NCBI GenBank assembly: GCA_050248615.1
Contig: JBFWSA010000025.1
Location: forward strand, 1 to 31,848
DNA length: 31,848 nt
From: Simkaniaceae bacterium
Lineage (GTDB): Bacteria > Chlamydiota > Chlamydiia > Chlamydiales > Simkaniaceae
Direction of reading: 5' to 3'
Position 1 is the first letter of the stretch. Every line of letters begins with the position of its first letter. Shown here one piece after another: positions 274 through 20,728 of the stretch. Made by a program: the position numbers and the translations under genes. The notes beneath the pieces are model-generated. The model was not told where the DNA came from. It saw nothing but the letters and a program-made list of their open reading frames with translations, and searched no databases.

Positions 274-900
274 TTATTGCAATAGTTCAATAATTTCCTG
301 ATCTTCTACTTGAGGGAAAATAGCATAGAACTGAGAGACCGCTTGAAAATCGTCTGTCGCATAGAGGCAGACGACGTGATCTGCAACTGCTTCGATCCGC
401 TTGAGAGTATCGGGAGGGGCAACAGGGACTGCGACAATCACTTCTTTTGCACCCTGAGATTTTGAAGAGCGGATGGCTGCGATCATGGTAGCTCCTGTAG
501 CGATCCCATCATCAACGAGAATCACGGTTTTCCCTTTAAGATCGGGACCTTTGCGATTTTTTCGGTAAAGGGCGAGCCTTTTTTCTGCGACCCTTTTTTC
601 AGAGTGGATCACTTGTTCAAGGTACTCTTTAGGGACATTGAGAGCATAGATCAGCTCTTCATTAAAGTACCCCTTACCCGTTTCTGTAATGGCCCCCACA
701 GCAAGCTCCGGATTGTTAGGAGCGCCCACCTTACGGACCATGATCAAATCAAAGGGAATATCAAGAGCTTTTCCCATTTCAGCAGCAATGACAACCCCTC
801 CCCGGGCTAGCCCCAGGATGATCACATGGGGTTGTTTTTGATACTTTCGAAAAGCTTGAGCGAGTTTTTGACCCGCTTCCTCGCGATTTTTATAGTACAT
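274..900 (-). CDS. Type I phosphoribosyltransferase family protein
   Basis: Motifs NREEAGQKLA, LGLARGGV, RKVGAP..PELAVGA and the PRPP-binding loop VILVDDGIATGATM. Start set at ATG 900 (MYYKNR) rather than 915. Confidence 0.9.
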   Translation of the reverse strand: MYYKNREEAGQKLAQAFRKYQKQPHVIILGLARGGVVIAAEMGKALDIPFDLIMVRKVGAPNNPELAVGAITETGKGYFNEELIYALNVPKEYLEQVIHSEKRVAEKRLALYRKNRKGPDLKGKTVILVDDGIATGATMIAAIRSSKSQGAKEVIVAVPVAPPDTLKRIEAVADHVVCLYATDDFQAVSQFYAIFPQVEDQEIIELLQ

Positions 901-1783
901 GGCTATGCCTTTCAATGGCGTCTGCTAAGTCAGTGGCTAGCTGAGGGTAGTGGAGCTCTAAATAACGGCGGAGATCATCTGTTGCCGCTGTAAAATCGTC
1001 CCGTGTGGGGACAGTAGGAAGGGTCAGATAAAACTCTCCCACGTCAATTTGAACAGCTTTCTCTTCAATAAGGCCTAAATTATGGGTGCAGTTCAGATCA
1101 TCATCTCCAATTCCCAAAGCTCTTCTCTCTGTAATGAGATCGAGAATCGAATGGATACAAGCACGGGCCCGCTCCTCTTGATGATCTTCCATCAAGGCGC
1201 TGAGTGTTTCTAAAATGGAATAAGCTCGTTTTTGCACTAAAAACTCCATGTTATCTAAATCGAGGGTGTGTTTCTTCCCAGAAGGCTCATGCAGATGAAT
1301 GGTTTTTTTTAGGTGATGTGTTTTGTTGAGATGAAGATAGAGAACCCCGGTTTGAAAAGGGAGGCGTTCATAGGCAATCTGGTAGCTAGTAAAGAGGCGA
1401 TTTCTGTGGTTTTGCCGCCGATTCACTGTTTCCTGGTAGAGCATCTTGAGGTGTTTGGCTAAGGGAAGATAATCTAGCGCAGATTGAGTGCGCATGTGTT
1501 TTTGTTTGAAGAATTTGATTACGTAAGTTCCCGATGTATTGACAAAGGCATAACACTCTTTTCCGCTCCCAATTAAGGTGAAGGGTTCTGATGCCAAGGC
1601 ATCCAAAAGGGCGCACTGCTCATCAGAGGGACTTCCGAAATCCCACCTTGGGGAGTAGGTATGTTCTGAGAGAATTTTTTTTACCGAAAATCCTTTTGTC
1701 CGCTTAATAAAATTGATGTAGGAGAAAACACAAACAAAGACAAAAGCAGAGAGAATAGCTGGAAGAAGAATCTTTTTTTTCAT
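890..1783 (-). CDS. N-terminally anchored hypothetical protein with protein-kinase-like motifs (paralogue 1)
   Basis: 297-aa ORF with hydrophobic N-terminus; IGSGKECYAF, VIKFFK, DDDLNCTHNLG, IDVG. Confidence 0.7.
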   Translation of the reverse strand: MKKKILLPAILSAFVFVCVFSYINFIKRTKGFSVKKILSEHTYSPRWDFGSPSDEQCALLDALASEPFTLIGSGKECYAFVNTSGTYVIKFFKQKHMRTQSALDYLPLAKHLKMLYQETVNRRQNHRNRLFTSYQIAYERLPFQTGVLYLHLNKTHHLKKTIHLHEPSGKKHTLDLDNMEFLVQKRAYSILETLSALMEDHQEERARACIHSILDLITERRALGIGDDDLNCTHNLGLIEEKAVQIDVGEFYLTLPTVPTRDDFTAATDDLRRYLELHYPQLATDLADAIERHSHVL

Positions 1784-2637
1784 TTTAACGTCTTTAAAGT
1801 CTCCTCTATGCGTTTTTGTACATCAGGTAAAAGGTGGGAGGCATTTTCCTGGATAAAGTCGCGGATTTGTAGGGAAATCTCTTGAGTCTCCTCCACTACG
1901 TCCCGAGGAGGCTGGTCTAGCTTGAACTCTCCAACATCCACCTCGAGGGCCTCTCCCTGGCTAAATCCAAAATTTTTATAAAACTGCAAGTCCTTATCGA
2001 AGATCCCTTTTTGATTACGTGTAGCGATTAAGCGGAGAAGGGATTCGACAGCATCGAGAAGTGCTTCCTTGTGATTGAGGAGAGAGTGGAAATGCTCAAA
2101 CGCAAGCGTTGCTTTTTTTTGGAGTAAAAACTCCATGTTGTCGAGAGGGATTTCTAAGACCTGTCCCTGCTGATCGACAAGAGAGAGCGTCGGAAGGAGT
2201 CCTTCCGTTTTATTGAGATGGAGAAAGATCACACCTGTTTCCTTTTGAAGGTGTTCGTAAGCAATTTTATAGCTTGTAAATGACTCTTCCCGCTCCTGTG
2301 CGCGGCGCTTGATACGCTCCATAGGATAAAACAGGCGTTTGGCCGGGAGGGGAAGATAGTCTACCAAAGATTGGGTCTGCATATGCTTTTGTTTGAAGAA
2401 TTTCAAAACATATTGCCCATCTTCACTTTTAAAAGCGTAGCAGTGGTTCCCACTTCCGAGATAGGTATAAGGCTGCATGAAATAGCTTTGAATGGCATCC
2501 CCTTCATTCGGCAAAGGGACATCCCATTTGGGATCATTGGGGTGTTTGGAAAGGATTTTTTTCAGAGTAAATCCTTGAGGGCGACTACACCCCCATGAGG
2601 CAAGCAGAAGGATGATCAGAACTAAATACCGTTTCAT
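1780..2637 (-). CDS. Putative lipoprotein with protein-kinase-like motifs (paralogue 2)
   Basis: 285 aa; signal peptide ending ASWG-C; LGSGNHCYAF, VLKFFK, DKDLQFYKNFG, VDVG. 4-nt stop/start overlap with paralogue 1. Confidence 0.7.
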   Translation of the reverse strand: MKRYLVLIILLLASWGCSRPQGFTLKKILSKHPNDPKWDVPLPNEGDAIQSYFMQPYTYLGSGNHCYAFKSEDGQYVLKFFKQKHMQTQSLVDYLPLPAKRLFYPMERIKRRAQEREESFTSYKIAYEHLQKETGVIFLHLNKTEGLLPTLSLVDQQGQVLEIPLDNMEFLLQKKATLAFEHFHSLLNHKEALLDAVESLLRLIATRNQKGIFDKDLQFYKNFGFSQGEALEVDVGEFKLDQPPRDVVEETQEISLQIRDFIQENASHLLPDVQKRIEETLKTLK

Positions 2638-2647
2638 GCGTCTATTT

Positions 2648-2682
2648 TATACTCAACCAACTTTTGAAGTTGTTTGAGTATA
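2648..2682. repeat. 35-bp palindromic intergenic repeat, copy 1
   Basis: tatactcaaccaacttt-t-gaagttgtttgagtata; abuts the stop codon at 2683; near-identical copies at 24517 and 25185. Confidence 0.9.
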
Positions 2683-4746
2683 CTAAAGGGGAGTCAAAGC
2701 GTCAATTGAAAGGAGGGCTTTAGTTTTGTGTTCTCGCATCACCTTTTCTAAGTGTTCTTTGAAGGTTTCCTCTTGTTCTTTTGGAGAAAGGAGGAATCCG
2801 AGAGCATGGAGGTCAAAGACCTTTAAATAGGTAGTGAGAAGCTCACTGGGGTTGGGAACAAAGGTATAAGAGAGCTCTTTTAACCTGTCAATAAGAGAGG
2901 GATCTGTGGAACAAACCATCAACAATGCATAATCCTCCTGGGTACGACTGACAATAAAACCCTCATCATAAAGAAAATCATGATCCAAGGCATTTAAAAG
3001 AAGGGAGAAATGTTCTTTTAGGACCTCTGGAGGAATCAGGCTTTGCATATAGGAGGGGGAGAGAGAATAAAAATAGTTTTCAATCAGAGGATCATGGACA
3101 GGGTCAGCTAAAAGATTTTTGAAGGCTGCTAAGGTTTCATACTGTTTAGAGATCATTCCCCCATTAAAATCATTGAGTTCATGGAGAGTATTTTTGAGGT
3201 ACTGAATGAGTTTTTGTCTCCCTTCCGCAATTTTTGCACTCCCTTTGACATGTATGTCAAACACATACGCCTCTTTGAGATGGCGTTTATTGAGTATTCC
3301 ACACACTTTGCGTTCCGACTTTCCCACCTGTATTTGAGCTGTGTTGGGGAGAGTTAAGTGGGGAGCATCCGATTTTTGAATGCGCGTGATGATCACAGAA
3401 AAAAGGAGATCTTTTTCCCATTGATTATGGAATTGGATAATGACCTGAGGGGGATCGTTAGGGTTTTTGAGTTCTTTGGAGAGGGTTAAGATGTTTCGCA
3501 TCGTCTCCTCATCACTATAATGAGAGGGAAGAGGTGCGGGAGTTCTTTGGATGCACTCTTTAATTTTTTTGGGTATTTTCTTCTTCAGGCATTTCACTGC
3601 ATCCGCTGTAAAAGGACTCTTATCGTCATTTTGAATCTCTAAATAGAGAATACGGACACGCTCTTTCCCTTGTTTTTTTGTGATCAAGCTCTCTTCCACT
3701 AAAACGATGTGAGGAAGTTCTTCTTGGATAGCCTTAAACACGTGGTGTTCTTCTAGAATTTCACGGTCATCCATGAGGTTGATCCCAATGAGGAAAGCCA
3801 AAGTAGGGACAACACTATTTTCCCTCTTAAGCTCAGTTTTTAGAAGCTTAAAACTCGTGTGGCGCTCCTGGGGCCTCGTGAAGATGGTATGGGTGATGAT
3901 TTTGCGAAAGAGATAGAGATAGGAAAGGAGCTTGTTGAGGTGAAGGAGGGGACGTCTCTTTGCAAAAGAGGGATCAAAAATCATGAGATAATTTTGGATT
4001 TCATTAAAAATGGTAGAGTCAAATTCTTGGGGTTTTTCTTCAAGAAGAGGGAGGAGGTGGTCTGGAATTTTATGGGGATCTTTTTCTTGCAGAGCTTTTA
4101 GAAGAACATGGTGCGTTTCCTCAAAAATCGTATGGTGGAGTTCCTTATGAGGGCGCTTAATCAGCGAGGTGAGATTTTCTAAGAGAATCATCCCTTTTTC
4201 TTCCATTGAGAGTCCCTTTGTAAGAACCACCTTGCGGGCATGTTCGACCCCTAGCGTCGTTAAACGGATCTCTTCGGCAACTTTAGGATAATTTTCCTGG
4301 ATGATGTGGAGATCACGCGCTGTTTCTGCTTCAAAATAGAGCTCGGTGATAAAATAACGGCGATCGGGCTGAATCAGAAATTTAAAATTGAGCGAGCGCA
4401 TGACCGTAATGGGAAGGTGTTTTCCAGGAATGAGAAAACGGGCCACTCTATCACAGAAATAGCGCCCGACGCCATGAGAGTGATCTCCTAAGCAAAGAAG
4501 AGCAATCGAGAGGCTACAAGGAGCTTCATCTGCAGAAGAGATTTTTACAATCGGTAGAACGTCATGGAGTTTCTGAAAGGAGGCTTCAGTAGGGATAAAG
4601 TGAGAGGCTTCCTGAACTTCAAAAATGGACTCGGGGACAATATCTTTAACAAGATGCTCGATAGAGGCCACATAGGAGTCAAATCCTTGTTTGTTTCCTT
4701 GCGGAGGGGGAAAACTGGATTTGATTTTTAAAAGATCAATTTTCAT
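2683..4746 (-). CDS. Hypothetical cytoplasmic protein coupled to oppA (~687 aa)
   Basis: Long ORF; probable ATG at 4746 (MKIDLLK), overlapping the oppA stop; no obvious signal peptide or transmembrane segment. Confidence 0.75.
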   Translation of the reverse strand: MKIDLLKIKSSFPPPQGNKQGFDSYVASIEHLVKDIVPESIFEVQEASHFIPTEASFQKLHDVLPIVKISSADEAPCSLSIALLCLGDHSHGVGRYFCDRVARFLIPGKHLPITVMRSLNFKFLIQPDRRYFITELYFEAETARDLHIIQENYPKVAEEIRLTTLGVEHARKVVLTKGLSMEEKGMILLENLTSLIKRPHKELHHTIFEETHHVLLKALQEKDPHKIPDHLLPLLEEKPQEFDSTIFNEIQNYLMIFDPSFAKRRPLLHLNKLLSYLYLFRKIITHTIFTRPQERHTSFKLLKTELKRENSVVPTLAFLIGINLMDDREILEEHHVFKAIQEELPHIVLVEESLITKKQGKERVRILYLEIQNDDKSPFTADAVKCLKKKIPKKIKECIQRTPAPLPSHYSDEETMRNILTLSKELKNPNDPPQVIIQFHNQWEKDLLFSVIITRIQKSDAPHLTLPNTAQIQVGKSERKVCGILNKRHLKEAYVFDIHVKGSAKIAEGRQKLIQYLKNTLHELNDFNGGMISKQYETLAAFKNLLADPVHDPLIENYFYSLSPSYMQSLIPPEVLKEHFSLLLNALDHDFLYDEGFIVSRTQEDYALLMVCSTDPSLIDRLKELSYTFVPNPSELLTTYLKVFDLHALGFLLSPKEQEETFKEHLEKVMREHKTKALLSIDALTPL

Positions 4747-6313
4747 GAGTTCTCTCAGGGTGCAAGGTAACATGTGTCAAATGAATCGATCCGATGGGAG
4801 AAATATAGACCCCTTCCACGTACGGCTGCTGCAAAAAGATTTCCCTCCAGTGGTAAATAGGGGCTATGGGCATTTCTTCCATGAGGATCTCTTCCGCTTT
4901 TTCTAAGTGCTCTCTTCGTTTTTTTAATGTCGAAAGAGTCATAGAAGCATCGAGTATTTCAATATACTTAGAATTTTCCCATCCTGGATAGTTTTTTGCA
5001 TTAGATTTGAACTTAAAGCGGTCAAAAATATTCATAAGATCGGGATACTGAATGATCCAGAGTCCGTAACCCAATTGGTAATCGCGTTTGATCAGTTTGT
5101 CGAGATAGACTTTGAAGGTGTAGCCCTCTAACCTCACCCGAATGCCGAGGGTTTTGTGCCACTGCTCTTGCAAGGCTTGAACCACTTGGGTATGGGGGTC
5201 ATTGATCAAATAAACAAAGGGAATGTCTTCTAAGTCACTTTTGGTTAACCCGAGCTCTTCGAGCCCTTGCTGAAGATAGGCTTGAGCCTGGGAGAGATCC
5301 TTACGGGGAAAAAATCCGCGAACGACCTGTTCCTTTAAGAGAGGAGGGATCGGATCGAGGGCGACTTCTTCTTCCATTTGCGTGATGTGATGGACAATGG
5401 CTTCCCGATCCATCGCATAAGCAAATGCCTTCCGGATATTTGCATTACAAAAGGGAATCGTCGCTGTATTAAAAGTGCAAAAAGAGGTCGCCCCTAACGC
5501 TTTTGTTTGGAGCTTTCCCTCCCCTTTTAAACGGGGGAGTGCATCGAGAGGAATGGGGGAAAAACGAGAGCCTAAAAAATCGAGCTCCTTTTTCTGATAG
5601 AGATTCAGAGCGGTGGTTTCATCCTCAATAAAAGAGATCTGCACCCCCTCAAGATGGACGTTTTTTGCATCCCAATAAAAAGGGTTTTTTTCTAGTACCA
5701 TGAGATTGGAGGGGCGGTAGGCATCCATCTTAAAGGGACCGTTATTCACCCTTTCAGAAAAATCGCTGTCATGAGGGACGGGGAAAAAAGTGCAAAAAGC
5801 AATCAGCTCTAAAAAATACGGAGTGGGACATTCGAGTGTGACCTCCAGTGTTTTATCATTCAGAGCTTTTATGCCGATAGCATCGACACTGATGAATCCC
5901 TCCTTGGCTCCTCTTGCATTTTTAATCGGGTAGAAAAGTGCGGCGTCAGGAGCAGGGAAATCGGGAGCCAGGAGGGTTTTCCAGGCATATTCAAAATCCT
6001 TAGCGACTAAAGGTTTTCCATTAGACCAAAAAGACGAGCGCAAGTGAAAAGTATAAACTGTCTGATCGTCAGAAATCTCCACTTTTTTTGCAAGGGCCAG
6101 TTCACAGTTTGAAGCCGGGGTCATCCGGGTGAGCCCTTCAAAAAGCATAAACTTCACGGTGGTAGAAATCGGATCTCCCCCTTTACGAGGATCGAGCGTT
6201 GAGGGATCTTCAGGAAAATTGACACGCATCACATGGTGTCCTTTGATAGGAGAGGAAGAGTAGCATCCAAAAAACAGGATGCAGATTAGAACTAGGAATA
6301 TTCTTACTTTCAT
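4736..6313 (-). CDS. oppA: Oligopeptide ABC transporter substrate-binding lipoprotein (SBP family 5)
   Basis: Lipobox FFG-C; PSTLDP, LFEGL, YTFHLR...WSNG, NGPF, KNPFYW, IRKAFAYAMDRE, EEMPIAPIY. Confidence 0.92.
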   Translation of the reverse strand: MKVRIFLVLICILFFGCYSSSPIKGHHVMRVNFPEDPSTLDPRKGGDPISTTVKFMLFEGLTRMTPASNCELALAKKVEISDDQTVYTFHLRSSFWSNGKPLVAKDFEYAWKTLLAPDFPAPDAALFYPIKNARGAKEGFISVDAIGIKALNDKTLEVTLECPTPYFLELIAFCTFFPVPHDSDFSERVNNGPFKMDAYRPSNLMVLEKNPFYWDAKNVHLEGVQISFIEDETTALNLYQKKELDFLGSRFSPIPLDALPRLKGEGKLQTKALGATSFCTFNTATIPFCNANIRKAFAYAMDREAIVHHITQMEEEVALDPIPPLLKEQVVRGFFPRKDLSQAQAYLQQGLEELGLTKSDLEDIPFVYLINDPHTQVVQALQEQWHKTLGIRVRLEGYTFKVYLDKLIKRDYQLGYGLWIIQYPDLMNIFDRFKFKSNAKNYPGWENSKYIEILDASMTLSTLKKRREHLEKAEEILMEEMPIAPIYHWREIFLQQPYVEGVYISPIGSIHLTHVTLHPERTHEN

Positions 6314-6438
6314 CTTATTTCTCCGAAAGAACAGGCATAAACCAAAACGAGAATTATTTGCAAATGATTAAGATCGATTATATTTTTCTTAAAAATAGGA
6401 ATGGGAAGACATTCTCTATATAACGCATTCCTTTTTGA

Positions 6439-6471
6439 TGCTAAATTTTTTGATAGATTAAAAATTTAGCA
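6439..6471. promoter_or_regulatory. 12-9-12 inverted repeat between divergent oppA and tpsA; possible operator
   Basis: tgctaaattttt-N9-aaaaatttagca, perfect arms. Confidence 0.4.
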
Positions 6472-6517
6472 ACTGATTATTAATCAAACTGAAATAAAAA
6501 AAAATTTTGGAGATCAT

Positions 6518-9500
6518 GTGTTGAGATCTAAACTGTCCGGTATACTGCTTATTCCAATCTTTTTGTATGGCAAACCTATAGATCCAAAGGTAACTTCAGG
6601 AACAGCCACTTTTCAAACCCCCTCTAATACCTTGCTTGTTGTTAATTCAGGGGATCGAACCATTATTCAGTGGAATAGTTTTTCGATTCATGAGAACGAG
6701 CATGTTATTTTTAATCAACTTTCCTCTCATTCTTCTATCTTGAATCGCGTAACTTCATCAGAAGTCAGCAAAATTATGGGAAAACTGACTTCCAATGGAA
6801 AAGTGATTCTTATCAATCCTTTTGGGGTTCTTTTTGGAGAAAAGGCAAGCATAAACACCCATGCTTTCATTGCTTCCACACTAGATTTATTAGACGCTGA
6901 TTTTTTAAATGGAAAAGACCTCCTTTTTAAAGGGGAAAGCAATGCGGGGATAGTGAACCTTGGTGAGATAAAAGCTAGAGGAGGAGATATAACCTTAATT
7001 GGGCGTTATATAACCAACGAAGGAACTATTAAAGCTCCTGAAGGAGTAGCAACGCTAGCTGTTGGGAAAGAAATTCTATTAAAGCCTTCAGGTAAAAATC
7101 GTGTATTTATTTCTCCAAATGGTGAAGGGGATTTAGAAGAAGGAATCATTGATAAAGGAACTATCGAAGCTCTTCGGGTTCAGCTGATAGCTGATGGAAA
7201 TGCTTATAAGTTTGCAATTAAACATGAGGGAAAAATAGATGCCTTATCTACTCAAGAGTATCAAGGGGATATCTACTTAGTCTCTGAAGGAGGAAGTGTT
7301 GAGAGTAGGGGGCAGCTCCATGCTTCTGGAGGCCACGTCCGCATCCTTGGGGAAAATGTAGCTTTGATGGACCACGCATTCATTAATACTTCTTCTGCAG
7401 ACAAAGGGGGAACAGTATTAATCGGAGGGGCTTTTCAAGGGAATGATCCTGATATCTATAATGCGAGACAAACTATCATTGGAGAAAATGTAAAAATCCA
7501 AACAAGTGCTCTTGAGAATGGAAATGCAGGAGATGTGGTTGTATGGGCAGATGGTACCACTATTTTTCATGGAAACATTGAAGCAAAAGGGGGAGTCATC
7601 GGTGGAAATGGAGGGTTTGTAGAAGTTTCAGGAAAAACAGCTCTCGATTGGAAAGGATCTGCTGATCGAACAGCTCCTTTTGGAATCCCAGGGACTCTTT
7701 TGTTAGATCCAAGTGACGTTACCATTGTTGACAGCAGTGGTTCAACAACAGCGATGACACTCGGCCCTACAATCAGTCCAGCAGTCCCTTTTACCGGGTG
7801 TCAGTTACGAAATGAAGACCTTACGAATCAACTGACATTTGGACCTGTTGTTGTTACAACGAGCTCGGCTAATACTGAAAATGGTGATCTAATCATTAAG
7901 GCTGATATCGATGATTCACTTGCTACTCCTTATAACACCTCAAACTCATTGACACTCATTTCAAATAGAGACCTGGTGATTTATGGAAGCGTTCAAAATG
8001 AAGGTTCAGGAGCCATCATCTGCAGTGTAGGAAGAGATCTTGTTGTAGATGGATCCAATGCAGTTGGGTCTGGAAGTCGTTTAGGATCAAGATATGGAGA
8101 TGTTATCATCACTACAGGAGGAAGTGTCTTGATGTCAGGAGGGGGAGGAGTCGGTCGTTCTGCTCAGATTGGCTATATTGCCAATGAAATTAAAAGCAAT
8201 ATTTCTTTAGATATTGGTGGCAACTTATACATGCAGTGCGTCAATAACTACGCACTTATCGGCCACACCTATTTTGGAGATATCTTTCCCCCCCTAAATT
8301 TTACTGGTGATATTAATATCTCGAGAATTGGAGGTGAACTTGTGATGATTGCAGGAGGAGATTCAACTGCCTTCGCACAAATTGGACTCGTTCCTCATCA
8401 ATCATCAGGCCCAACATCTATGGGAACGACTGGAATAGGGAATATTACGATTTCAAATGTGGGGTCTAATATTCAGTTAACAGGTGGTCAAAAGGCGATT
8501 AATTGCTACACGCTGATTGGGCATGGAGGACGTCCAAGGTCATTTCCAGACTCTTTTCAAGGAGATATTCTTGTTAGGGGTTTTAGAGACCTAGTGATCA
8601 CTGGAGGACGGGGTGGAAATGTAGATAACTTTGCTGGAATTGGATATGGTCAAACTTTTCCAGTGACCGGAGGAACCCACACCTTCACTTCCAACTTCAT
8701 TGATGTTGGAGTTAGTGGAAGGTTAATTCTTCAAGCAGGACAAGAAGGAACTGGGAACCATGCTTATATCGGAGCCTATACAGGTTCAGCTACTACAGTT
8801 GGTCCCTCTTTTGTCAACCTTTCTATTGGGAGGATTAGTACCTCTTCGGGAAGCAACACTGCTTTACTTGGAGATGGCAATAACAATGCCGATTCAGACG
8901 CCATTATTGGGCTTTTAGGAAGAATAGGACCTGCTGCTACAAATGTGAATGTGACATCAGGAGATGCTTTGTTTTTAATAGCTGGTACTCCACCTGCTGG
9001 AACCTCTGATGCTGCGATACGAAATGCCATTAGAGCTACTGGAGGCTCTATTAATGTCACTGTCTCTAATGGAAGCGCTCTTCTCCGAGGAAGTAATCTA
9101 TTGGGAGGAGGAACAGCTGATATCACTTCCGCAGGAACTCTAGATGTTAATGTCCAAAATGGTAATCTCAATATTACGAGTCGAAATGATTCGGCATTTA
9201 TTACTACTTTCGGGGTTGGCAATGTCTTTGCTTCAAGAGATATTGTTATTACCGGTAATCCTCTAGTTCCTGTTCAGGCATATATTAAAGGAGGGAGTTA
9301 TCTCCGTGTTCAAGCTGGGGATACTATTGATCTTGTGGAGAATTCCTTAATTACAACTTCTCCTGGGATTCTTGAAGTGATTGCTGGAAATGACATCAAC
9401 ATGTCAGCACTTTCACAGATCATCAATGGAGGAGCTGGTGGAAATGATTTATTAAACATTGTTGTAGATAATGACTTTCCCACCTCACCAGGTATTGGGT

Positions 9501-10009
9501 TTGGAGCCTTGAATATGGAGCCAGGGGCAACTATATTTGGTGATGAAGTCCGTATTTTCACTGCAAGGCAGAATTTAAACAACATTTTGGGACTGATTAA
9601 TGGAACCCCTTTTACTCCAGGACCTCTTTATGCAGATCAAGCTCCAGAAAAATGGTTGACTTACTACTTCGATTCGTTTTTTCATACTGGATCTCCTTTT
9701 ACAATCTTTTATAAAGATGGGGTTGTTTCGGTAGCCAATGTACAAAGAAGTCAGGTTTTAATTAGTGAAGCCTTAACTGATTTACATCCTTATGATGAGT
9801 TTTTGGGTTGGTCATTGGAATTTCAAGAAGGATATGATGTCGAGAAATACAATTCTAAACATTTAGACGGAATTTCAAGTTTTCAAATTATTCCTGATCA
9901 GATGTATTATTTACGCATGAGGAAGCATTTCAATAGCATGCTCAGGGACAGCGATTTTATATTATTTCCTACTCCTCTTAAAACAACAACGCAACAGAAT
10001 GATTTATGA
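6518..10009 (+). CDS. TpsA-like exoprotein with filamentous haemagglutinin N-terminal (TPS) domain and beta-helical repeats
   Basis: Signal peptide; IIQWNSFSI, ILNRVT, GKLTSNGKVILINPFGVLFG, GGFVEVSGK, GTLLLDP; Gly-rich repeats; coupled to tpsB. Confidence 0.9.
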   Translation: MLRSKLSGILLIPIFLYGKPIDPKVTSGTATFQTPSNTLLVVNSGDRTIIQWNSFSIHENEHVIFNQLSSHSSILNRVTSSEVSKIMGKLTSNGKVILINPFGVLFGEKASINTHAFIASTLDLLDADFLNGKDLLFKGESNAGIVNLGEIKARGGDITLIGRYITNEGTIKAPEGVATLAVGKEILLKPSGKNRVFISPNGEGDLEEGIIDKGTIEALRVQLIADGNAYKFAIKHEGKIDALSTQEYQGDIYLVSEGGSVESRGQLHASGGHVRILGENVALMDHAFINTSSADKGGTVLIGGAFQGNDPDIYNARQTIIGENVKIQTSALENGNAGDVVVWADGTTIFHGNIEAKGGVIGGNGGFVEVSGKTALDWKGSADRTAPFGIPGTLLLDPSDVTIVDSSGSTTAMTLGPTISPAVPFTGCQLRNEDLTNQLTFGPVVVTTSSANTENGDLIIKADIDDSLATPYNTSNSLTLISNRDLVIYGSVQNEGSGAIICSVGRDLVVDGSNAVGSGSRLGSRYGDVIITTGGSVLMSGGGGVGRSAQIGYIANEIKSNISLDIGGNLYMQCVNNYALIGHTYFGDIFPPLNFTGDINISRIGGELVMIAGGDSTAFAQIGLVPHQSSGPTSMGTTGIGNITISNVGSNIQLTGGQKAINCYTLIGHGGRPRSFPDSFQGDILVRGFRDLVITGGRGGNVDNFAGIGYGQTFPVTGGTHTFTSNFIDVGVSGRLILQAGQEGTGNHAYIGAYTGSATTVGPSFVNLSIGRISTSSGSNTALLGDGNNNADSDAIIGLLGRIGPAATNVNVTSGDALFLIAGTPPAGTSDAAIRNAIRATGGSINVTVSNGSALLRGSNLLGGGTADITSAGTLDVNVQNGNLNITSRNDSAFITTFGVGNVFASRDIVITGNPLVPVQAYIKGGSYLRVQAGDTIDLVENSLITTSPGILEVIAGNDINMSALSQIINGGAGGNDLLNIVVDNDFPTSPGIGFGALNMEPGATIFGDEVRIFTARQNLNNILGLINGTPFTPGPLYADQAPEKWLTYYFDSFFHTGSPFTIFYKDGVVSVANVQRSQVLISEALTDLHPYDEFLGWSLEFQEGYDVEKYNSKHLDGISSFQIIPDQMYYLRMRKHFNSMLRDSDFILFPTPLKTTTQQNDL

Positions 10010-11721
10010 ATTTGAGACCAATAGTAATAGCCTTATTTTTCACTACTTCAATTTATACTCAAGATTGGGAAAGAGTGGCTCCCAAAGAGCCTACAGAATT
10101 TGAGTCTGGGCATGGAACCCTCTATTCTCCTGAAGGAACAATAAAATCAATAACCGATGGAGACAAGGTAATCATCCCTCAGTTAAAAGGGGTTTTGCTT
10201 ACTAGTGAAAATACAACTGTTACTCAAGAAGAAATTAACCGTGCTATTGGAAGAGTAGATACCCTCAACATTCGACTGCCAGGTCCCTTTAAGAGTTTAA
10301 ATGAAGATATTTCGAATAAGTTTCTCAATAGACCTTTAACAAAGCAAGATGCTTTGGAATTAAAGCAAGAAATTATTTTTTTCTACCAAAGATGGGGTCG
10401 TCCTGTCGTAACCCTTGAAATTCCTCAACAAAAAATCAATGATGGTGTCCTACAATTGATTGTTATAGAAGGAAAATTTGGGCAGGTCAGAGTTGAAGGG
10501 AATCGCTATTTTAAATCTAAAACATTAACTGAATATATTCGCCTGCAAGAAGGAGAAGCCATTGATTCAAACATCTTAATAGAAGATGTGGATTGGATGA
10601 ACCGTAATCCTTTTAGGCAAGTTGATATTATCTATGCTCCAGGTGAGGTAGCTGGAACAACAGACATCCGCCTATTGACTAAGGATCGGCGCCCCTATCG
10701 TTTCTATGCTGGAGTAGATAATACGGGATATGATGAAACAGAAAATACACGCCTATTTGTAGGAGCAAATTGGGGAAATGTTTTTGGACTTGATCAAATC
10801 CTATCTATACAATTTACATGCGCTCCTAATGTGAATCGCTTTTGGGCTGGGACAGGAAGCTATACGATCCCACTTCTTTGGAGGGATGTTTGGGACTTTT
10901 ATGGAGGATACTCTCAAGTCCAAGGAGATATGGATACCCCAGGATTAAAAAATAAAGGATATAGTGCACAAGCAAGCACCCGTTATAACTTTATACTAAA
11001 ACCCCATCCTGGACACTTACATGATCTCATTCTTGGACTAGACTATAAGCGAACCAATAACAATCTAGAATATGGGGGAAATAGTGTTTTTCGCCAAAGC
11101 ATTAACCTCACGCAATTGGTCTTCGGATATAATAGCGCCTTTGATAGTGAGTGGATGAGGTCCTCATTCTCTTTAGAATTCTTCTATTCTCCCGGGACTT
11201 GGCTTCCAGAGCAGTCGAATGCAGACTATCGCCAAGTACGCTACAAAGGAAATGCACACTACCTCTATGGAAGGTTCTCCTTTGAGCCCATTATTAGACT
11301 TCCAAAAGACTTTGCTTTTGCTGTAACTTTACGTGGACAAGCATCCACTCAGAATCTCATTGCAAGCGAGCAATATGGGTTAGGAGGCTATAATACAGTT
11401 CGAGGCTATAAGGAAAGAGAAGTGAATGTAGATGATGCCTTCCTTTTATCTACAGAGTTAAGAAGTCCAGCTATTGGCTTCATTGGGAAAAACGCTTTTA
11501 AAGATCTGCTTCAATTCCTTATTTTTTTAGACTATGGGATTGGTAGAAATGTGCATAAAGAACCTGGGGAACAAGCCAGTCAGTACCTCCTCGGATTTGG
11601 ACCTGGAGTACGTTATGATATCGGTCCTTACCTGAATTTTCGTGGAGATTTAGGAGTTCAACTGCATAAGTTAGATAGTCGAGGATTTCGATTTCACTTC
11701 AGTTTAATTGCAAGTTACTAA
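10006..11721 (+). CDS. TpsB (ShlB/FhaC/HecB family) outer-membrane secretion/activation protein
   Basis: Signal peptide; POTRA-like PQQKINDGVLQLIVIEG; DNTG; GGYNTVRGY; C-terminal aromatic beta-signal FHFSLIASY. Confidence 0.92.
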   Translation: MNLRPIVIALFFTTSIYTQDWERVAPKEPTEFESGHGTLYSPEGTIKSITDGDKVIIPQLKGVLLTSENTTVTQEEINRAIGRVDTLNIRLPGPFKSLNEDISNKFLNRPLTKQDALELKQEIIFFYQRWGRPVVTLEIPQQKINDGVLQLIVIEGKFGQVRVEGNRYFKSKTLTEYIRLQEGEAIDSNILIEDVDWMNRNPFRQVDIIYAPGEVAGTTDIRLLTKDRRPYRFYAGVDNTGYDETENTRLFVGANWGNVFGLDQILSIQFTCAPNVNRFWAGTGSYTIPLLWRDVWDFYGGYSQVQGDMDTPGLKNKGYSAQASTRYNFILKPHPGHLHDLILGLDYKRTNNNLEYGGNSVFRQSINLTQLVFGYNSAFDSEWMRSSFSLEFFYSPGTWLPEQSNADYRQVRYKGNAHYLYGRFSFEPIIRLPKDFAFAVTLRGQASTQNLIASEQYGLGGYNTVRGYKEREVNVDDAFLLSTELRSPAIGFIGKNAFKDLLQFLIFLDYGIGRNVHKEPGEQASQYLLGFGPGVRYDIGPYLNFRGDLGVQLHKLDSRGFRFHFSLIASY

Positions 11722-11846
11722 GCAACACGCATTCAAGATCCGTTTATATGGAAAGAGTTTCGTAGAAAAGGGTTTGCATTTTCTAGCCATTTTTTTCTAC
11801 CTACCTCTCCTAAATCATCCCCATTTTAAACAACTTTAGCTATAAT

Positions 11847-13445: not shown

Positions 13446-13469
13446 GACTTAAAGATCATAAGGCTTTTT
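13432..13469 (-). terminator. Intrinsic terminator-like hairpin after 13501..14919, overlapping the oppA start codon
   Basis: Minus strand AAAAAGCCTTATGA-tctttaag-TCATGAGGCTTTTTTT; homologous to the hairpin at 15500. Confidence 0.65.
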
Positions 13470-13500
13470 CCATTACTTCTAAAGAAGAAACCGCACCGCT

Positions 13501-14919
13501 TTAGTAGCGATGACGTGGTTGCTCATTTTCCATCAGAAAAGCGGCAGCAGCAAACACTCCGACAGCACCCACCATCCCTGCAACCGTTAGACCTGCTGCC
13601 TTGAGGTAACCCACATGGTAGCTTGTCAAATACTGCGAGAGGGTAGGAGCGAGGGCAACCGTTGCAATAAAGGCAGCGGCTACGCGTGTTCCCACGTGGA
13701 ACATTTTTTCACTATCTTTCGTTCTTTTATTCTCCATTTTTGCAAAATCTAGAGTTAAAACGGAAATGAGCGTGGAAACGCCACCCACAGCACCGACAGA
13801 AAGAGATCCTTTCAGGATCGGAGCTTTTTCCCCTAGATAAGAGCAAATCGTTCCAAAACTTAAAAAGATGGCCGCGACAACGCCAGTGACCAGACCCACA
13901 CTTATAGAATATTTTCCTAGACGTTTGTAGTCTTCAAAAGTATAGCGGCGTCCTTGACCTGCCTCTGGGCGAGGAGGAGGAAGATCTCCTGCAATCGCTT
14001 GTTTATCACGGACATGGGGGTTGTTAAACAGAAGTTTCTCCCTTTCTGCTTGGGTTGCAAACGACAAAATTTGGTAAGATAAGCTTTCACTCTGCGCAAA
14101 GAGTTGCTGTCCTTGCTCCATTTGCATGAGGACTTTGAGCTGCTTGGTAGGATCTTCCATCCATTGCAGAGCCTGCTTAGCTGGCTCCATTGCTCTAGCA
14201 ACCATAAGCGCATTCAGAAGCTGCGTTTGATGGGTGGTATGAGAAAACTCACGCCAAAACAAACCTTGGTTAAACTGTAGAGGATGTTCTTGTTGCGCAT
14301 CTTGAACAAGCTCGTCAATCCGTCTTATGTCTAAGGCAGCTACAGGACGCTCTTCTAGCACTCTGGGCCTTTCTTGCCCGCGCCTAGCGTGGCGTTCCAT
14401 TGCTTTCTCTGCGCCATGATCCATGTATGAAAAACCTGCGGCAGCAAGGGCTCCTAAAACTCCGTACAGCGCTGCACCGAGATAAGTCACGCGGTGAGGG
14501 CAAAGAGATTTAGAAACGATCGGAGTAAAGGCTGCAGTGCTCAGAAAAACGCATAAAGCAACGCTTCCCATTCTCTGATATTTCTCTTTTACTCTTTCTC
14601 CTAAAACCAGCGGCATTTTATGACTAAGAGGAATCGCAACCGCAGTTGTCATCCCCGCAATCGCCCCTGCGGGAAAGGTTCCCCAAACGGCAGGTGTTGT
14701 TGTAAATAGGTGATAGACTACCTTTGTTGCCAAAAGTCCCAAGGAGCCAATAGCTAAAGCCCCTGCTCCCATCCAGAGTCCTCCATAGCCATCGGATAAT
14801 CGATTGGTGATAAATTCTCCAATGGCTTCTCCCCATCCTCTTCGAGGTCTTACTTCCAAAACTTCATGTGCTCCAAAATGAGGAGCAGCTCTTTCATGAT
14901 CAAATTCTACTCTTTGCAT
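13501..14919 (-). CDS. Hypothetical membrane protein with two hydrophobic modules (Inc-like); long paralogue
   Basis: 472 aa; hydrophilic N-terminus; paralogue of 15567..16646 with a longer central linker. Confidence 0.75.
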   Translation of the reverse strand: MQRVEFDHERAAPHFGAHEVLEVRPRRGWGEAIGEFITNRLSDGYGGLWMGAGALAIGSLGLLATKVVYHLFTTTPAVWGTFPAGAIAGMTTAVAIPLSHKMPLVLGERVKEKYQRMGSVALCVFLSTAAFTPIVSKSLCPHRVTYLGAALYGVLGALAAAGFSYMDHGAEKAMERHARRGQERPRVLEERPVAALDIRRIDELVQDAQQEHPLQFNQGLFWREFSHTTHQTQLLNALMVARAMEPAKQALQWMEDPTKQLKVLMQMEQGQQLFAQSESLSYQILSFATQAEREKLLFNNPHVRDKQAIAGDLPPPRPEAGQGRRYTFEDYKRLGKYSISVGLVTGVVAAIFLSFGTICSYLGEKAPILKGSLSVGAVGGVSTLISVLTLDFAKMENKRTKDSEKMFHVGTRVAAAFIATVALAPTLSQYLTSYHVGYLKAAGLTVAGMVGAVGVFAAAAFLMENEQPRHRY

Positions 14920-14934
14920 ATTTTCCTCCTTCTA

Positions 14935-15357
14935 TTAATACTCATCATAATCTTGTCCATTGGGGGACAAGAACACAAAGGTTCCCACACCTGCGAGGCC
15001 ATAAAGAGAAGACTCAATATAGTTCACAGAATAAGTGGATAACATTTTTGATACTGTAGGTGTTGCAAGCGTTGTTGTAAGAAATACAGTAAGCGCTCCA
15101 GCAGCAGCTGCTGCAAAGGGGCTCTCTGTTTTTCTTCCGATCACTTTTGCTAACGGCAGGGCCACCAAACACGACGTTCCCGTCATGAGGGAAGCGTTTA
15201 GGGTCCCTTTAATAGAAGGCATATAACTGTCAATAAATGCATTGATTTTACTGCCCGTAAAGTAGAGGATTGCACATGCACCAGCGCCCACAACGGCTCC
15301 AGCTGCATACAGTGCACCCCCAGCGGCAGATATTCCGACTTTTTGTAAGTCTACCAT
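14935..15357 (-). CDS. Small hypothetical membrane protein (single module)
   Basis: 140 aa, hydrophobic; close paralogue of 16659..17057. Confidence 0.75.
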   Translation of the reverse strand: MVDLQKVGISAAGGALYAAGAVVGAGACAILYFTGSKINAFIDSYMPSIKGTLNASLMTGTSCLVALPLAKVIGRKTESPFAAAAAGALTVFLTTTLATPTVSKMLSTYSVNYIESSLYGLAGVGTFVFLSPNGQDYDEY

Positions 15358-15402
15358 AGTGCCCGTCTCCCAAATCTTAGATTTTGTTAAAAATTGGGCA
15401 CC

Positions 15403-15431
15403 ATCATATACAAGTCCAGGTTTAATTTCAA
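15403..15431 (-). promoter_or_regulatory. Putative sigma66/sigma70-type promoter
   Basis: Minus strand TTGAAA-N17-TATGAT, about 45 nt upstream of ATG 15357, with an AT-rich tract upstream. Confidence 0.6.
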
Positions 15432-15499
15432 AAAAAATAAAAGATTCTCAATTTTTTGAGGGTAAATTGCTTACGTAAAATGTAAAAAATTCTTTTAAG

Positions 15500-15536
15500 A
15501 AAAAAGCCTTACGAAGACACCTTCGCAAGGCTTTTT
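15500..15536 (-). terminator. Intrinsic terminator after 15567..16646
   Basis: Minus strand AAAAAGCCTTGCGAAG-gtgt-CTTCGTAAGGCTTTTTT, one G-U pair. Confidence 0.8.
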
Positions 15537-15566
15537 CGATAACTTCTAATGACGGAACTACCTAAA

Positions 15567-16646
15567 TTAGCGGCGTCTTCTCTGGGATGGTTTTTCGTCA
15601 TTCATCGCATCTAACAGGATAAGCCCACCGCCGCCTACTGCAGCAGCACCCCCCACTCCTGCAACAGTCAGACCCGCTGCTTGGAGGTAACCCACATGGT
15701 AGCTTGTCAAATACCGAGAGAGGGTAGGCGCTAAGGCAACCGTTGCAACAAAGGCAGCAGCCACTCGTGTTCCTATATGGAACATTTTTTCATTTTCTTT
15801 CGTTCTTTGACTCTGTAGTTTTTCAAAATCTAGAGTTAAAACGGCAACGCATGTGGAAATACCACCCACAGCACCGACAGAAAGAGATCCCTTAAGGATG
15901 GGAGCTTTTTCCCCTAGATAGGCACAAATCATTCCCAAACTTAAGAAGATTCCCGCTACAACGCCAGTGACCAGACCCACACATATAGAATATTTTCCTA
16001 GACGTTTGTAGTCTTCAAAAGTATAGCGGCGTCCTTGAATTGCCTCTGGGAGCTCTTGATGCTGTCCGAGCTGACGCTCAGCTTTTTTCGCACGTTTTTC
16101 CTCTTTCTGGTGATCTTTGAGAGAGCAAACAGCGGCAGTGAAGGCCCCTAAAATTCCATATGTTGCAGCACCAAGATAACTGACGCGCTGAGGGCAAACA
16201 AACTTAGAAACTGTAGGAATAAAGGCTACGCTACTCAGAAAAACGGATAAAGCTACGCTTAGCGCTTTCTGATTCTCTTCTTTAACGTTTTCTCCCAAAA
16301 CCCTAGGCATTTTATGACTGAGGGGAATGGCAACCCCAGTTGTGATCCCCGTAATCACTCCTGCGGGAATGGTTCCCCAAATGGAAGGAGTCGATACAAA
16401 GAGGGCATAAACGGTTTTGGTCACAAGCAGACCCAGTGAGCCAACAGCTAAACCGCTCATTCCCATCAAAAGACCGCCAGCCCCATCGATAAAGCGTTGG
16501 CTAATAAATTCATAGGCGGTCTCTCCCCATCCTCTTTGAGGTCCTTCTTCAAAAAATTCGTCTTCTTCTAGAAACTGCCTTCTTGCATACTGAAATGCCC
16601 CATGCTGAGGCACTTCATCATATTGTCGTTCTAAGCTAGATGCCAT
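15567..16646 (-). CDS. Hypothetical membrane protein with two hydrophobic modules (Inc-like); short paralogue
   Basis: 359 aa; GAGGAAAAT precedes the ATG on the minus strand, as in its paralogue. Confidence 0.75.
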   Translation of the reverse strand: MASSLERQYDEVPQHGAFQYARRQFLEEDEFFEEGPQRGWGETAYEFISQRFIDGAGGLLMGMSGLAVGSLGLLVTKTVYALFVSTPSIWGTIPAGVITGITTGVAIPLSHKMPRVLGENVKEENQKALSVALSVFLSSVAFIPTVSKFVCPQRVSYLGAATYGILGAFTAAVCSLKDHQKEEKRAKKAERQLGQHQELPEAIQGRRYTFEDYKRLGKYSICVGLVTGVVAGIFLSLGMICAYLGEKAPILKGSLSVGAVGGISTCVAVLTLDFEKLQSQRTKENEKMFHIGTRVAAAFVATVALAPTLSRYLTSYHVGYLQAAGLTVAGVGGAAAVGGGGLILLDAMNDEKPSQRRRR

Positions 16647-16658
16647 ATTTTCCTCCTT

Positions 16659-17057
16659 TTAGGTTGCCATGATTAAGAATGTTCCCGCACCTGCGAGGCC
16701 ATAAAGAGTAGACTCGATATAGCTCACTGGGTATGTGGATAACATTTTCGATACGGTGGGTGTTGCAAGTGTTGTAATGAGAAAGAGAGAGAGCGCTCCA
16801 ACAGCTTTTGCTGCTAGTTGGCTTTCTGTTCGTTTGTTAATTACCCTTACTAACGGCACGGCCACAAAACACGATGTTCCCATAACGAGGGAAGCGTTTA
16901 GTGTCCCTTTAAAAGAAGGCATGTAACTATCTATAAAGGCATTGATTTTACTGGCTGTAAAATAAAGGATTGCACACGCACCAGCTCCTACAATGGCTCC
17001 AGCTGCGTAAAGTGCGCCTCCAGCGGCAGATATTCCGACTTTTTGTAAGTCTACCAT
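16659..17057 (-). CDS. Small hypothetical membrane protein (single module)
   Basis: Start set at ATG 17057 (MVDLQKVG) to match its paralogue's N-terminus; GGGAGA RBS-like sequence upstream. Confidence 0.75.
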   Translation of the reverse strand: MVDLQKVGISAAGGALYAAGAIVGAGACAILYFTASKINAFIDSYMPSFKGTLNASLVMGTSCFVAVPLVRVINKRTESQLAAKAVGALSLFLITTLATPTVSKMLSTYPVSYIESTLYGLAGAGTFLIMAT

Positions 17058-17096
17058 AATCGATCTCCCAATCTTTTTTTTTGATAACTGGATAGC

Positions 17097-17125
17097 AGTA
17101 TAGGGAAAGGGAAAATTATACTCAA
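17097..17125 (-). promoter_or_regulatory. Putative sigma66-type promoter whose -35 lies in a half-copy of the 35-bp palindrome
   Basis: Minus strand TTGAGT-N17-TATACT; tatactcaaacaa at 17117-17129. Confidence 0.55.
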
Positions 17126-17151
17126 ACAAAAATGGAGAGAGAGAAAAAAAT

Positions 17152-18039
17152 TTAAGGGTGCTCAATCATTTCTTGAATCTTTGTCTCTGCGTAGGGAGAG
17201 AGCTCAGGGTAGTGTTGATCTAGCCAAGGGATAATTTTTTTTTGAATTCGGAAAATCTCATGGGAGTAGTAGTAGGGGAGTTCCTTTTTAGGGTCGTGGT
17301 GAAACCCTCCCACATCGATTTCTACGACGTGATCTTTGATAAATCCAAAGTTGCGGATGAGATGGGGATCTTTATCGCTATATCCTTTTTGCGCCCGGTA
17401 GAGTGTGAAATGGAGGAGATCATCAATCGCTTGCTGAGCTTTTTTCAAATCTCCTGTTTTTTTTAGGGATAAGAGGTATTGATCAGTGGGAATGGCTCTT
17501 TTTTGCATGAGAAAGGGAATGGTATCAAGAGGGATTTTATGGGTGAGGCCCAAGCGATCTTTTACGATGAGGGTACGTTTCAGATGAGAGGTAGGATTTA
17601 GATGGACATAGAAAAGACCGGTTTCATTTCTAAAGTGGAGATAAGAGAGGATGCAACTCGCAAACGTTGCCTGAACGGTCTCTTCTTTTTTTTGTTTCCA
17701 GCGCTTCCGCTTAGCCTCTAAAGAAGGGGGGAGGGGAAGGGCCTCATAAAAGGGATGCATCCGCCACCGTTTATGTTTGAAAAACTTTAGGATATAATTT
17801 CCATCTGCGCTTATGAAAACGTAACTTTGACTCCCACTTGCCAAATAGTGATAACGCTCAGAAAGGGCAGTCGTGAGTTCTTCTAAATCGTCTGCAGCAA
17901 TCGGTACATCCCAAGCAGGGTTATAAGGGAGTTTGGAGGTGATATTAGGGAGGCCAAAACCATCGGTCAGGGAGTGGGAGAGGCGCTCTATTCCAAGGAG
18001 AGCACCTAAAATAAGGAGAAGATAGAGGAGCTTTTTCAT
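17152..18039 (-). CDS. N-terminally anchored protein with protein-kinase-like motifs (paralogue 3)
   Basis: 295 aa; hydrophobic N-terminus; LASGSQSYVF, ILKFFK, DKDPHLIRNFG, IDVG. Confidence 0.7.
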   Translation of the reverse strand: MKKLLYLLLILGALLGIERLSHSLTDGFGLPNITSKLPYNPAWDVPIAADDLEELTTALSERYHYLASGSQSYVFISADGNYILKFFKHKRWRMHPFYEALPLPPSLEAKRKRWKQKKEETVQATFASCILSYLHFRNETGLFYVHLNPTSHLKRTLIVKDRLGLTHKIPLDTIPFLMQKRAIPTDQYLLSLKKTGDLKKAQQAIDDLLHFTLYRAQKGYSDKDPHLIRNFGFIKDHVVEIDVGGFHHDPKKELPYYYSHEIFRIQKKIIPWLDQHYPELSPYAETKIQEMIEHP

Positions 18040-18890
18040 TCAACTAATGTTAAGAGTTCTTCTTCAAAACAGTGTAACAGATCGGGATGATTTTTCTCGA
18101 GGTAGTGATGAAAATGGCGGGTAATCCGAATCATTTCTGGTTGGTAGATGGTGGGATCTTTTTCGGTTTCATCCGCAATAAAACGCCCAAAGTCGATTTG
18201 AAAAGGTGCACTACCTATAAAGCCAAAATTCGTGCTAAAGTCGGGGTCTTTATCAAAAATGCCTTGTTGACACCGCTGCAAAGCTAAACGGAGGAGGTTT
18301 TTGATTCCTTGTTTGGCTTTTTCGATTTCCCCTTTTTCCATCCATGCATCAATTGCTTGATAGGCAAGGGTTCCCTTCCGCTGAATGAGAAAGGGGATTT
18401 GATCGAGGTGGATCACATGTTTTTTTCCGATTTTATCGATCAGGGTGACTTGGGTATGCAGGTGGTCTGTGGGAGCTAAGTGGATGTAGAGAAGGGCTGT
18501 TTCTTCTCGAAAGAAATCATACGCAAGGGAAATGCTGCTAAAGGTCCTTTCTAAAACCTGTCGTTTTTTCTCCCGTTTGGCTTCTAAATAGGGGAAAGAG
18601 GGGAGATATTCCAACCAGGGGGGAATACGCATATGTTGGAATTTGAAAAGTTTGAGAACGGTTTGGTTATCTTCGGAGATAAAAACATAGGATTGACTCC
18701 CTGAGCTAAAGTAGCGGTAAGGGGAGGAGATCAATTGAGGATCAAGGGGCTCTATCCGCTCCCACATCCGATGATCCCCTTGGGGAGGATAGACGTTGAC
18801 CATGGCAAACCCATCGGTTGCTTTATGACAGAAACGCTCCACCCAAAAGAATGCTGAAACGATCAAAAAAATCTTGAGTAAAAACCGCAT
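18036..18890 (-). CDS. N-terminally anchored protein with protein-kinase-like motifs (paralogue 4)
   Basis: 284 aa; FSSGSQSYVF, VLKLFK, DKDPDFSTNFG, IDFG. Confidence 0.72.
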   Translation of the reverse strand: MRFLLKIFLIVSAFFWVERFCHKATDGFAMVNVYPPQGDHRMWERIEPLDPQLISSPYRYFSSGSQSYVFISEDNQTVLKLFKFQHMRIPPWLEYLPSFPYLEAKREKKRQVLERTFSSISLAYDFFREETALLYIHLAPTDHLHTQVTLIDKIGKKHVIHLDQIPFLIQRKGTLAYQAIDAWMEKGEIEKAKQGIKNLLRLALQRCQQGIFDKDPDFSTNFGFIGSAPFQIDFGRFIADETEKDPTIYQPEMIRITRHFHHYLEKNHPDLLHCFEEELLTLVE

Positions 18891-20440: not shown

Positions 20441-20604
20441 TACCAATTTCCACAAATAAAATTACAAATTCATCTTGATCTTTTTTCGGAAAACTACACT
20501 TTTAATCTCACTAACCCTCATAGGGTTAGTATCGATTTCCAAGCGTAGTTTTGCATAAAAAATCTGCAAGCCAATTTGTAATTTTAATTTTTACAATTGG
20601 TATA
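20440..20604. repeat. ~165-bp imperfect palindrome (MITE/ERIC-like)
   Basis: Nested arms ataccaatt/aattggtat, taaaattacaaatt/aatttgtaatttta, aaaactac/gtagtttt and actaaccct/agggttagt. Confidence 0.8.
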
Positions 20605-20728
20605 ACCCACTCATTATTAACCTTGTTATTTTTAAATCGACGCACCAAATCGTTAAATCTTGATTTGGTGCGCCGATTTTCAATCTTATTTCGCTGCACC
20701 AAACAACATCTAAAGTTGTTTGGCTATA
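20601..20728. repeat. 128-bp TATA-bounded structured element related to the 35-bp palindromes
   Basis: tataacc...ggctata ends; internal IR aaatcgacgcaccaaatc/gatttggtgcgccgattt; terminal hairpin ccaaacaac/gttgtttgg. Confidence 0.7.

Follow-up and report, generated by a model that had tools for sequence, protein, structure and literature searches.

A putative family of exported, AceK-like kinase-fold proteins encoded as ordered paralogues in environmental chlamydiae

The window analyzed here is the 31,848-nucleotide stretch covering positions 1 to 31,848 of contig JBFWSA010000025.1 (assembly GCA_050248615.1) from a Simkaniaceae bacterium, and it carries four related genes, P0001 to P0004, whose products are predicted to be exported, membrane-tethered proteins with a protein kinase-like (PKL) fold. 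The four open reading frames (ORFs) lie at the coordinates given in the original prediction (Table 1), all on the minus strand, as two pairs read P0004 to P0003 and P0002 to P0001, with an ATGA overlap of 4 nt at each junction, and all four products contain the same motifs in kinase order (xSGxxxY[AV]F, [IL]K[FL]FK, D[KD]Dx5N[FL]G and [IV]D[VF]G). P0002, P0003 and P0004 are 30–41% identical to P0001, and P0004 as query retrieves the other three at E values of 3e-56 to 7e-33. In comparisons with relatives, synonymous sites are saturated (pS 0.76–0.83) and pN is about 0.2; by these sequence measures the four ORFs are under strong purifying selection and their resemblance is not due to chance. 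They are the only family copies in their own genome (96% complete), and their closest named homologues come from Simkaniaceae and other environmental chlamydiae. A promoter and terminator scan of the kinase genes stayed at chance level, and the contigs from RNA runs are short, cover kinase genes and intergenic DNA alike and carry no information on expression.

The four proteins have no match in Pfam (E ≤ 1) or NCBIfam, and 97 family members have none in Pfam at E ≤ 0.1, including PF06315 (AceK) and Pkinase. No family match was found in the PDB, searched by sequence and by profile, or among plasmids and phages, and the WaaP/WaaY/KdkA and YrbL profiles (PF06293, PF06176 and PF10707) gave no match, the Atlas scores of 0.86–0.87 being leads only. 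The absence of Pfam, NCBIfam and PDB sequence matches agrees with the initial view of an uncharacterized kinase-like family. The literature search returned no description of it; supplements and subscription journals could name these proteins, and the accessions of the Simkania negevensis members appear in no main text found. In the accessible text of two PKL surveys, chlamydiae are mentioned only as oral taxa (10.64898/2026.09.18.752743) or are not mentioned (PMC9758233).

The structure of P0004 was modeled with AlphaFold2 on a 97-sequence alignment (predicted local distance difference test (pLDDT) 96.2, predicted template modeling score (pTM) 0.90), and the fold of P0001–P0003 was taken from homology to P0004. 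All Foldseek and VIA matches listed for the model are PKL folds, in line with the kinase fold first proposed from the motifs. The top Foldseek rows comprise PRPK, AceK, WbdD, APH, WaaP, COQ8A and RIO, with PRPK as the first match (template modeling (TM) scores 0.47/0.57), WbdD at ranks 4 and 7, and WaaP at rank 16. Structural re-alignment placed AceK first (Z 11.8) and gave PRPK a Z of 11.4, and a Foldseek-free search of 48,161 chains also placed AceK first (Z 11.7, rmsd 3.9, 193 aligned residues; runner-up Z 10.5); nearly all of the top 50 chains in that search are protein kinases, with POMK at rank 48 (Z 9.2). None of the structural matches listed is a CotH, FAM20 or Legionella effector kinase, which does not exclude kinship. 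The family is predicted to adopt a bilobed PKL fold, and the nearest structural match to the model is the kinase domain of AceK.

A family alignment of 451 sequences (mean identity 34%) was assembled from the four window proteins, 308 profile hits of 230–360 aa from 80 loci, and 139 representatives, these being the sequences of 240–340 aa among 144 newly listed. Its profile scored 27.4 in hhalign against the AceK C-lobe, compared with a maximum of 18.3 in 40 shuffles, while six E. coli proteins other than AceK scored 11.5–16.5 and WaaY, WaaP and YrbL scored at background (11.5–13.2). The likeness to AceK (PF06315, PDB 3eps) extends over about 190 residues at 15% identity and includes the catalytic-loop N-F-G within the C-lobe signal and an equivalent β3 Lys and D/N/D triad, P0004 D215/N221/D233 aligning on D457/N462/D475, the AceK triad given in the accessible part of PMC3747045. 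Whereas AceK has about 580 residues with an N-terminal regulatory domain, and aligns over residues 293–541 alone, the family proteins here have 284–297 residues and an export leader; they carry D-x-D in place of the AceK P-G-D, one extra loop residue, and D-x-G in place of D-Y-D, and so have no equivalent of Asp477. Identity as AceK was ruled out on the lack of a PF06315 match, the missing regulatory domain and the replacement of Asp477 by Gly; PF06315 has no match anywhere in the genome.

Hanks-type kinases have an H/Y-x-D-x4-N loop and match the Pkinase profile, and the family does neither. Bud32/PRPK and RIO share with it a compact PKL fold and a small C-lobe, but lack a membrane leader and are only 13–15% identical; they are cytoplasmic, single-copy proteins with His or Tyr before the catalytic Asp. 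CotH is a functional analogue only: the accessible part of PMC12189002 describes it as an atypical protein kinase of bacteria, with a role in envelope structure and not in signaling, and without a DFG motif, while the family has a DFG-like one.

The catalytic residues of P0004 are K80, D215 (in D213-x-D215), N221 and D233 (in D233-F-G), together with G64, and the order of secondary structure elements in the model, along with the AceK alignment, suggests that the K/D/N/D set would converge on one site. This set (β3 Lys, catalytic Asp, metal-binding Asn and DFG Asp), noticed in the four proteins by the original prediction, is intact in 444 of the 451 sequences, a set that was chosen by profile and is thereby biased towards intact members; three of the remaining seven are truncated or misaligned, and four are altered at the catalytic Asp. 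The position two residues before the catalytic Asp, usually His, is Asp in 395 of the 451, Asn in 49 and His in one, and five residues separate Asp from Asn in 419 of 445 sequences, with four doing so in the other 26, so that the substitution and the longer loop noticed in the four proteins are traits of the family. As judged from these residues there is no pseudokinase class, and a pairing of active kinase and pseudokinase is excluded because all paralogues, and 444 of the 451 members, keep the set; in a FAM20C/FAM20A-type heterodimer one partner is without catalytic residues, whereas all four window proteins retain them. The intact set makes it very likely that these are active PKL enzymes.

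Activity of this kind need not be kinase activity. Exported PKL enzymes could instead mainly hydrolyze ATP, remove phosphate groups or transfer nucleotidyl groups, one conceivable purpose being to release phosphate for uptake. AceK also acts as a phosphatase through the same site, as stated in the accessible part of PMC6591243, the extra Asp or Asn at −2 of the catalytic Asp (444/451) could add a metal ligand, and a PiT phosphate transporter gene lies upstream in 34 of the 80 loci. Asp477, which that same source gives as needed for the phosphatase activity, is however Gly in 443 of 451 sequences, the PiT gene is divergent and part of a conserved backbone, and a single hydrolysis accounts less well than several substrates for paralogues that are numerous and ordered. 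We consider non-kinase chemistry unlikely.

The prediction that the proteins are exported or membrane-anchored is supported by their N-termini. In the 441 members whose N-terminus is present, the median length of the uncharged run is 14 residues, no second hydrophobic segment occurs in any, and net positive charge is higher before the run than after it in 350, equal in 59 and reversed in 32. The leader of P0002-type proteins has the expected lipoprotein features, with a basic n-region, a hydrophobic run and a conserved [GAS]-C. The own family (the family to which this genome belongs) has 22 such ORFs, two of them truncated, and [GAS]-C follows the hydrophobic run in 18 of the other 20, which come from kin and are not independent genomes; the two exceptions have I-C in one case and no Cys in the other. 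Lipoboxes also occur in other clades (loci L038, L028 and L078), and an aromatic residue at −2, as in the P0002 leader, is found in six of 26 lipoprotein-like starts returned by a pattern search of the genome. Chlamydia-specific lipoproteins are largely of unknown function according to the accessible text of PMC2811131. A Cys after the leader is conserved in 71% of members; it does not covary positively with any other Cys column, and an intrachain disulfide is not supported. T-x-G-F was considered as a signal-peptidase I site and rejected by inference, since the lipoprotein clade retains G-F, which lies at the end of the modeled helix.

That a clade of lipoproteins keeps the catalytic set intact argues most strongly for a domain that would work outside the cytoplasm, and with the charge bias the lipoboxes make this location likely. 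The opposite topology, in which the kinases are not exported but face the cytoplasm, attached by an N-terminal helix that dips into the membrane, would make the ATP supply trivial, and it draws on leaders that are often short and followed by charged residues and on P0001 and P0002, which have more positive charge after the run than before it. It is poorly compatible with the lipobox conserved in an intact clade, with the lipoboxes elsewhere and the cleavable-type leader of the fusion protein P0127, all of which imply translocation, and with the positive-inside bias of 350 to 32, and appears quite unlikely.

Clustering at 50% identity divides this large family into 2,563 clusters, and it was found in 300 of 400 sampled Chlamydiota genomes searched one by one, including 86/90 genomes of family f9, 68/69 of f7, 46/46 of f6 and 30/34 of f1; it was not found in f4 (0/29), f14 (0/8), f10 (0/5) or f15 (0/4). 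The small-genome family f4 (1.0–1.3 Mb) is probably Chlamydiaceae, and records titled Verrucomicrobia are probably mislabeled, as their gene order is that of chlamydiae. The claim that the genes always occur in tandem pairs holds in this genome and fails for the family, in which singletons, ordered arrays of up to eight genes and two-domain fusions occur. Across the 80 loci, counting copies within about 5 kb, three have one copy, 23 have two, 13 have three or four and 41 have five to eight, these counts being floors of which a few include fragments; of 12 further loci picked from other families, nine have a single gene and one has eight. Within the own family, both tight pairs lie on one contig in 11 of 38 other genomes, and lone genes of the P0001 type (genome G030) and the P0004 type (G053 and G060) also occur.

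In 29 arrays of at least five genes, paralogues cluster by array position, requiring 24 changes compared with 88.3 after shuffling, in a test whose loci were found by a first-gene pattern and whose shuffles ignore kinship. P0001 and P0002 are sisters, and the retention of old clades in order points to separate jobs for the paralogues. Four proteins (P0125, P0127, P0129 and L078) have two kinase domains fused behind one leader, a hint that paralogues act next to each other; no fused form of 579–2000 aa turned up in a search, which is weak evidence. The proteins might also be surface-exposed or vesicle-delivered kinases acting on inclusion or host substrates. Restriction of the family to intracellular bacteria, a variable lipoprotein +2 residue that would permit outer-membrane sorting, and a protein-kinase-like fold are all compatible with a host-facing role. 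Effectors turn over fast, whereas gene order and clades here are stable across families; most members, moreover, keep an anchor that looks uncleaved, and the leaders are Sec-type, not type III-like. A host-facing role is, on balance, improbable.

The Gram-negative periplasm normally has no ATP, and ATP-dependent kinases are not expected there. The source of periplasmic ATP was left unclear in the original prediction, and host ATP offers a candidate answer. Chlamydiae import host ATP via NTT nucleotide transporters, as the accessible part of PMC5451489 describes, and the NTT family has four matches in this genome; a periplasmic supply is plausible because host ATP must cross the periplasm to reach these importers. 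In the mechanism that we favor, tentatively and at somewhat less than even confidence, the proteins are active kinases that would be exported by Sec and tethered on the periplasmic face of the inner membrane, where ATP-Mg would be bound by K80, N221 and D233 (P0004 numbering), with D215 as the base. Host-derived ATP passing towards the NTT importers would feed them, and their targets would be in the envelope, likely proteins.

A protein substrate is slightly favored, provided that the enzyme is active and its catalytic domain lies outside the cytoplasm: an envelope protein is preferred over lipopolysaccharide (LPS) or another glycan since most of the top-ranked structural matches are protein kinases and the recurring neighbors included no identified glycan gene. 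Exported active kinases that instead modify the LPS core, another envelope glycan or a periplasmic-leaflet lipid, with paralogues modifying different positions, are a less probable alternative, for which WbdD, WaaP/WaaY and POMK provide the precedent of membrane-acting PKL folds. POMK is a lumen-facing membrane-anchored kinase, the topology proposed here, while WaaP and WbdD face the cytoplasm. Their presence among the structural matches supports this alternative, as does a short anchor that would hold the active site near the membrane, although they rank lower than AceK, and WaaP and WaaY are at background against the family profile. The genome itself has KdtA and six GT9 (heptosyltransferase-family) matches; the Kdo/WaaP kinase family is matched only partially and over short stretches. 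GT9 genes and kinases are both not found in f4 (0/29 each) and both numerous in f1, f7 and f9, but GT9 also occurs where kinases were not found (f10 5/5, f14 8/8, f15 4/4, f8 2/2 and f27 2/2), and f17 has two GT9 genes with four to six kinase matches, which leaves the phylogenetic profiling indecisive. One GT2 gene abuts an eight-gene array (L096), yet no linkage to a glycan cluster was found: in 23 recurring neighbor groups from the 80 loci, part of which were scanned against Pfam, no glycosyltransferase or LPS gene was identified. As a separate observation, GT9 genes are present in 359 of the 400 genomes, often with at least six copies per genome in f1, f7 and f9, and lie on contigs C62, C15, C11, C6 and C31 of this genome; their distribution suggests a richer LPS core in environmental chlamydiae.

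Several points weigh against phosphorylation of envelope proteins by exported kinases, in addition to the bias of the profile-chosen set. The re-alignment leaves AceK and PRPK/Bud32 tied (11.8 versus 11.4), the sugar and small-molecule kinases WbdD, WaaP, APH and POMK are also among the structural matches, pairwise hhalign to AceK with a narrower alignment is not significant (E 0.056), and a common fold says nothing on function. The long helix at residues 100–126 has no conserved acidic residue except near its end (D/E125 in 69% and E130 in 85%). The uncharged run is only 9–12 residues in 182 of 441 members, short for a transmembrane helix, and most members end the leader with E-R-F-C and have no lipobox, so that export of the non-lipoprotein clades is extrapolated. 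The family was not found in the NTT-using, small-genome family f4, and periplasmic ATP alone therefore does not explain its spread. Activity, localization and substrate are all predictions, of which the substrate class is the weakest step.

The recurring neighbors of the kinase genes at the 80 loci include, besides PiT, a 275-aa exported protein (60 loci), a 720-aa protein (45), a major facilitator superfamily (MFS) transporter (19), HSP20 (16) and OppA (15). At locus L095 the order is kinase, kinase, OppA, OppA, 692-aa protein, kinase, DUF2227, and the window probably carries the same locus, stretched by an inserted two-partner secretion (TPS) pair and membrane-protein genes. The TPS pair lies between two OppA genes on the strand opposite to them, has a lower G+C content and is probably an insertion into the ancestral locus. 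Homologues of the 275-aa protein are directly upstream of and co-oriented with the kinases in 10 loci; with this query none was found in f6 (0/46), f3, f12 or f17, which have kinases, and it was found in f1, f7, f9, f20, f28, f30 and a few others. It has invariant H139, R142 and E151, and its Bacteroidota relatives carry the automatic label "phosphopeptide-binding protein". The same Atlas label (0.90) was rejected for the protein itself, whose model shows two immunoglobulin (Ig)-like sandwiches with no listed FHA match. The palindrome upstream of its gene (folding z −8.4 versus shuffles) has copies on contigs C46 (96%) and C28 (79%) and resembles a non-autonomous mobile element or repeat of small size. 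At three f6 loci (L085, L087 and L089), the only kinase gene has a methyl-accepting chemotaxis protein gene nearby in divergent orientation.

Table 1. Positions of the kinase-family genes, their predicted features and other elements of the window
Feature	Position	Strand	Description
P0001	890..1783	minus	297 aa; paralogue with 22-residue uncharged anchor, sister of P0002
P0002	1780..2637	minus	285 aa; predicted lipoprotein paralogue, catalytic set intact
P0002 predicted lipoprotein signal peptide	2587..2637	minus	End S-W-G-C17
696-aa protein	2683..4773	minus	Conserved chlamydial protein, syntenic with kinase locus across families; no Pfam or NCBIfam match
TPS pair	6518..11721	plus	TpsA (TPS domain) and TpsB (POTRA, ShlB)
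Tandem-duplicated two-gene unit	13501..17165	minus	Hydrophobic proteins between P0003 and OppA, 472+140 aa and 359+~132 aa, 74–88% DNA identity; no family match; inclusion-membrane-like by eye
P0003	17152..18039	minus	295 aa; paralogue, catalytic set intact, ATGA overlap with P0004
P0004	18036..18890	minus	284 aa; short hydrophobic leader and PKL domain; clade usually first in arrays
P0004 catalytic loop through D233-F-G	18186..18254	minus	D213-K-D215-x5-N221-F-G to D233-F-G
Imperfect palindrome	20432..20610		165 bp, between MFS gene and 275-aa gene
275-aa protein	20774..21601	plus	Predicted exported, two Ig/FnIII-like sandwiches; listed as genomic context only
720-aa protein	21749..23911	plus	Conserved chlamydial protein, syntenic with kinase locus across families; no Pfam or NCBIfam match
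ORFs of 300 and 378 aa	29637..31689	minus	No family match; 378-aa ORF with central hydrophobic stretch, type III translocator-like by eye

Within the kinase superfamily these proteins form a new branch of considerable size, related in structure to the AceK kinase domain but free-standing, and as a multi-gene trait they set most environmental chlamydiae apart from the pathogens with small genomes. Energy-parasitic chlamydiae are bacteria in which the lack of periplasmic ATP may not be a limit, and the family makes periplasmic ATP chemistry testable, with Simkania negevensis (CCB88950 / F8L842) as a cultivable carrier. It is possible, at a confidence approaching even, that environmental chlamydiae possess a kinome in the periplasm, made up of an ancestral and ordered set of up to eight or more AceK-like kinases. 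These would use host ATP to phosphorylate the bacterium's own envelope, for instance while replicating and spore-like forms convert into each other, and the system would have been lost towards the pathogenic Chlamydiaceae.

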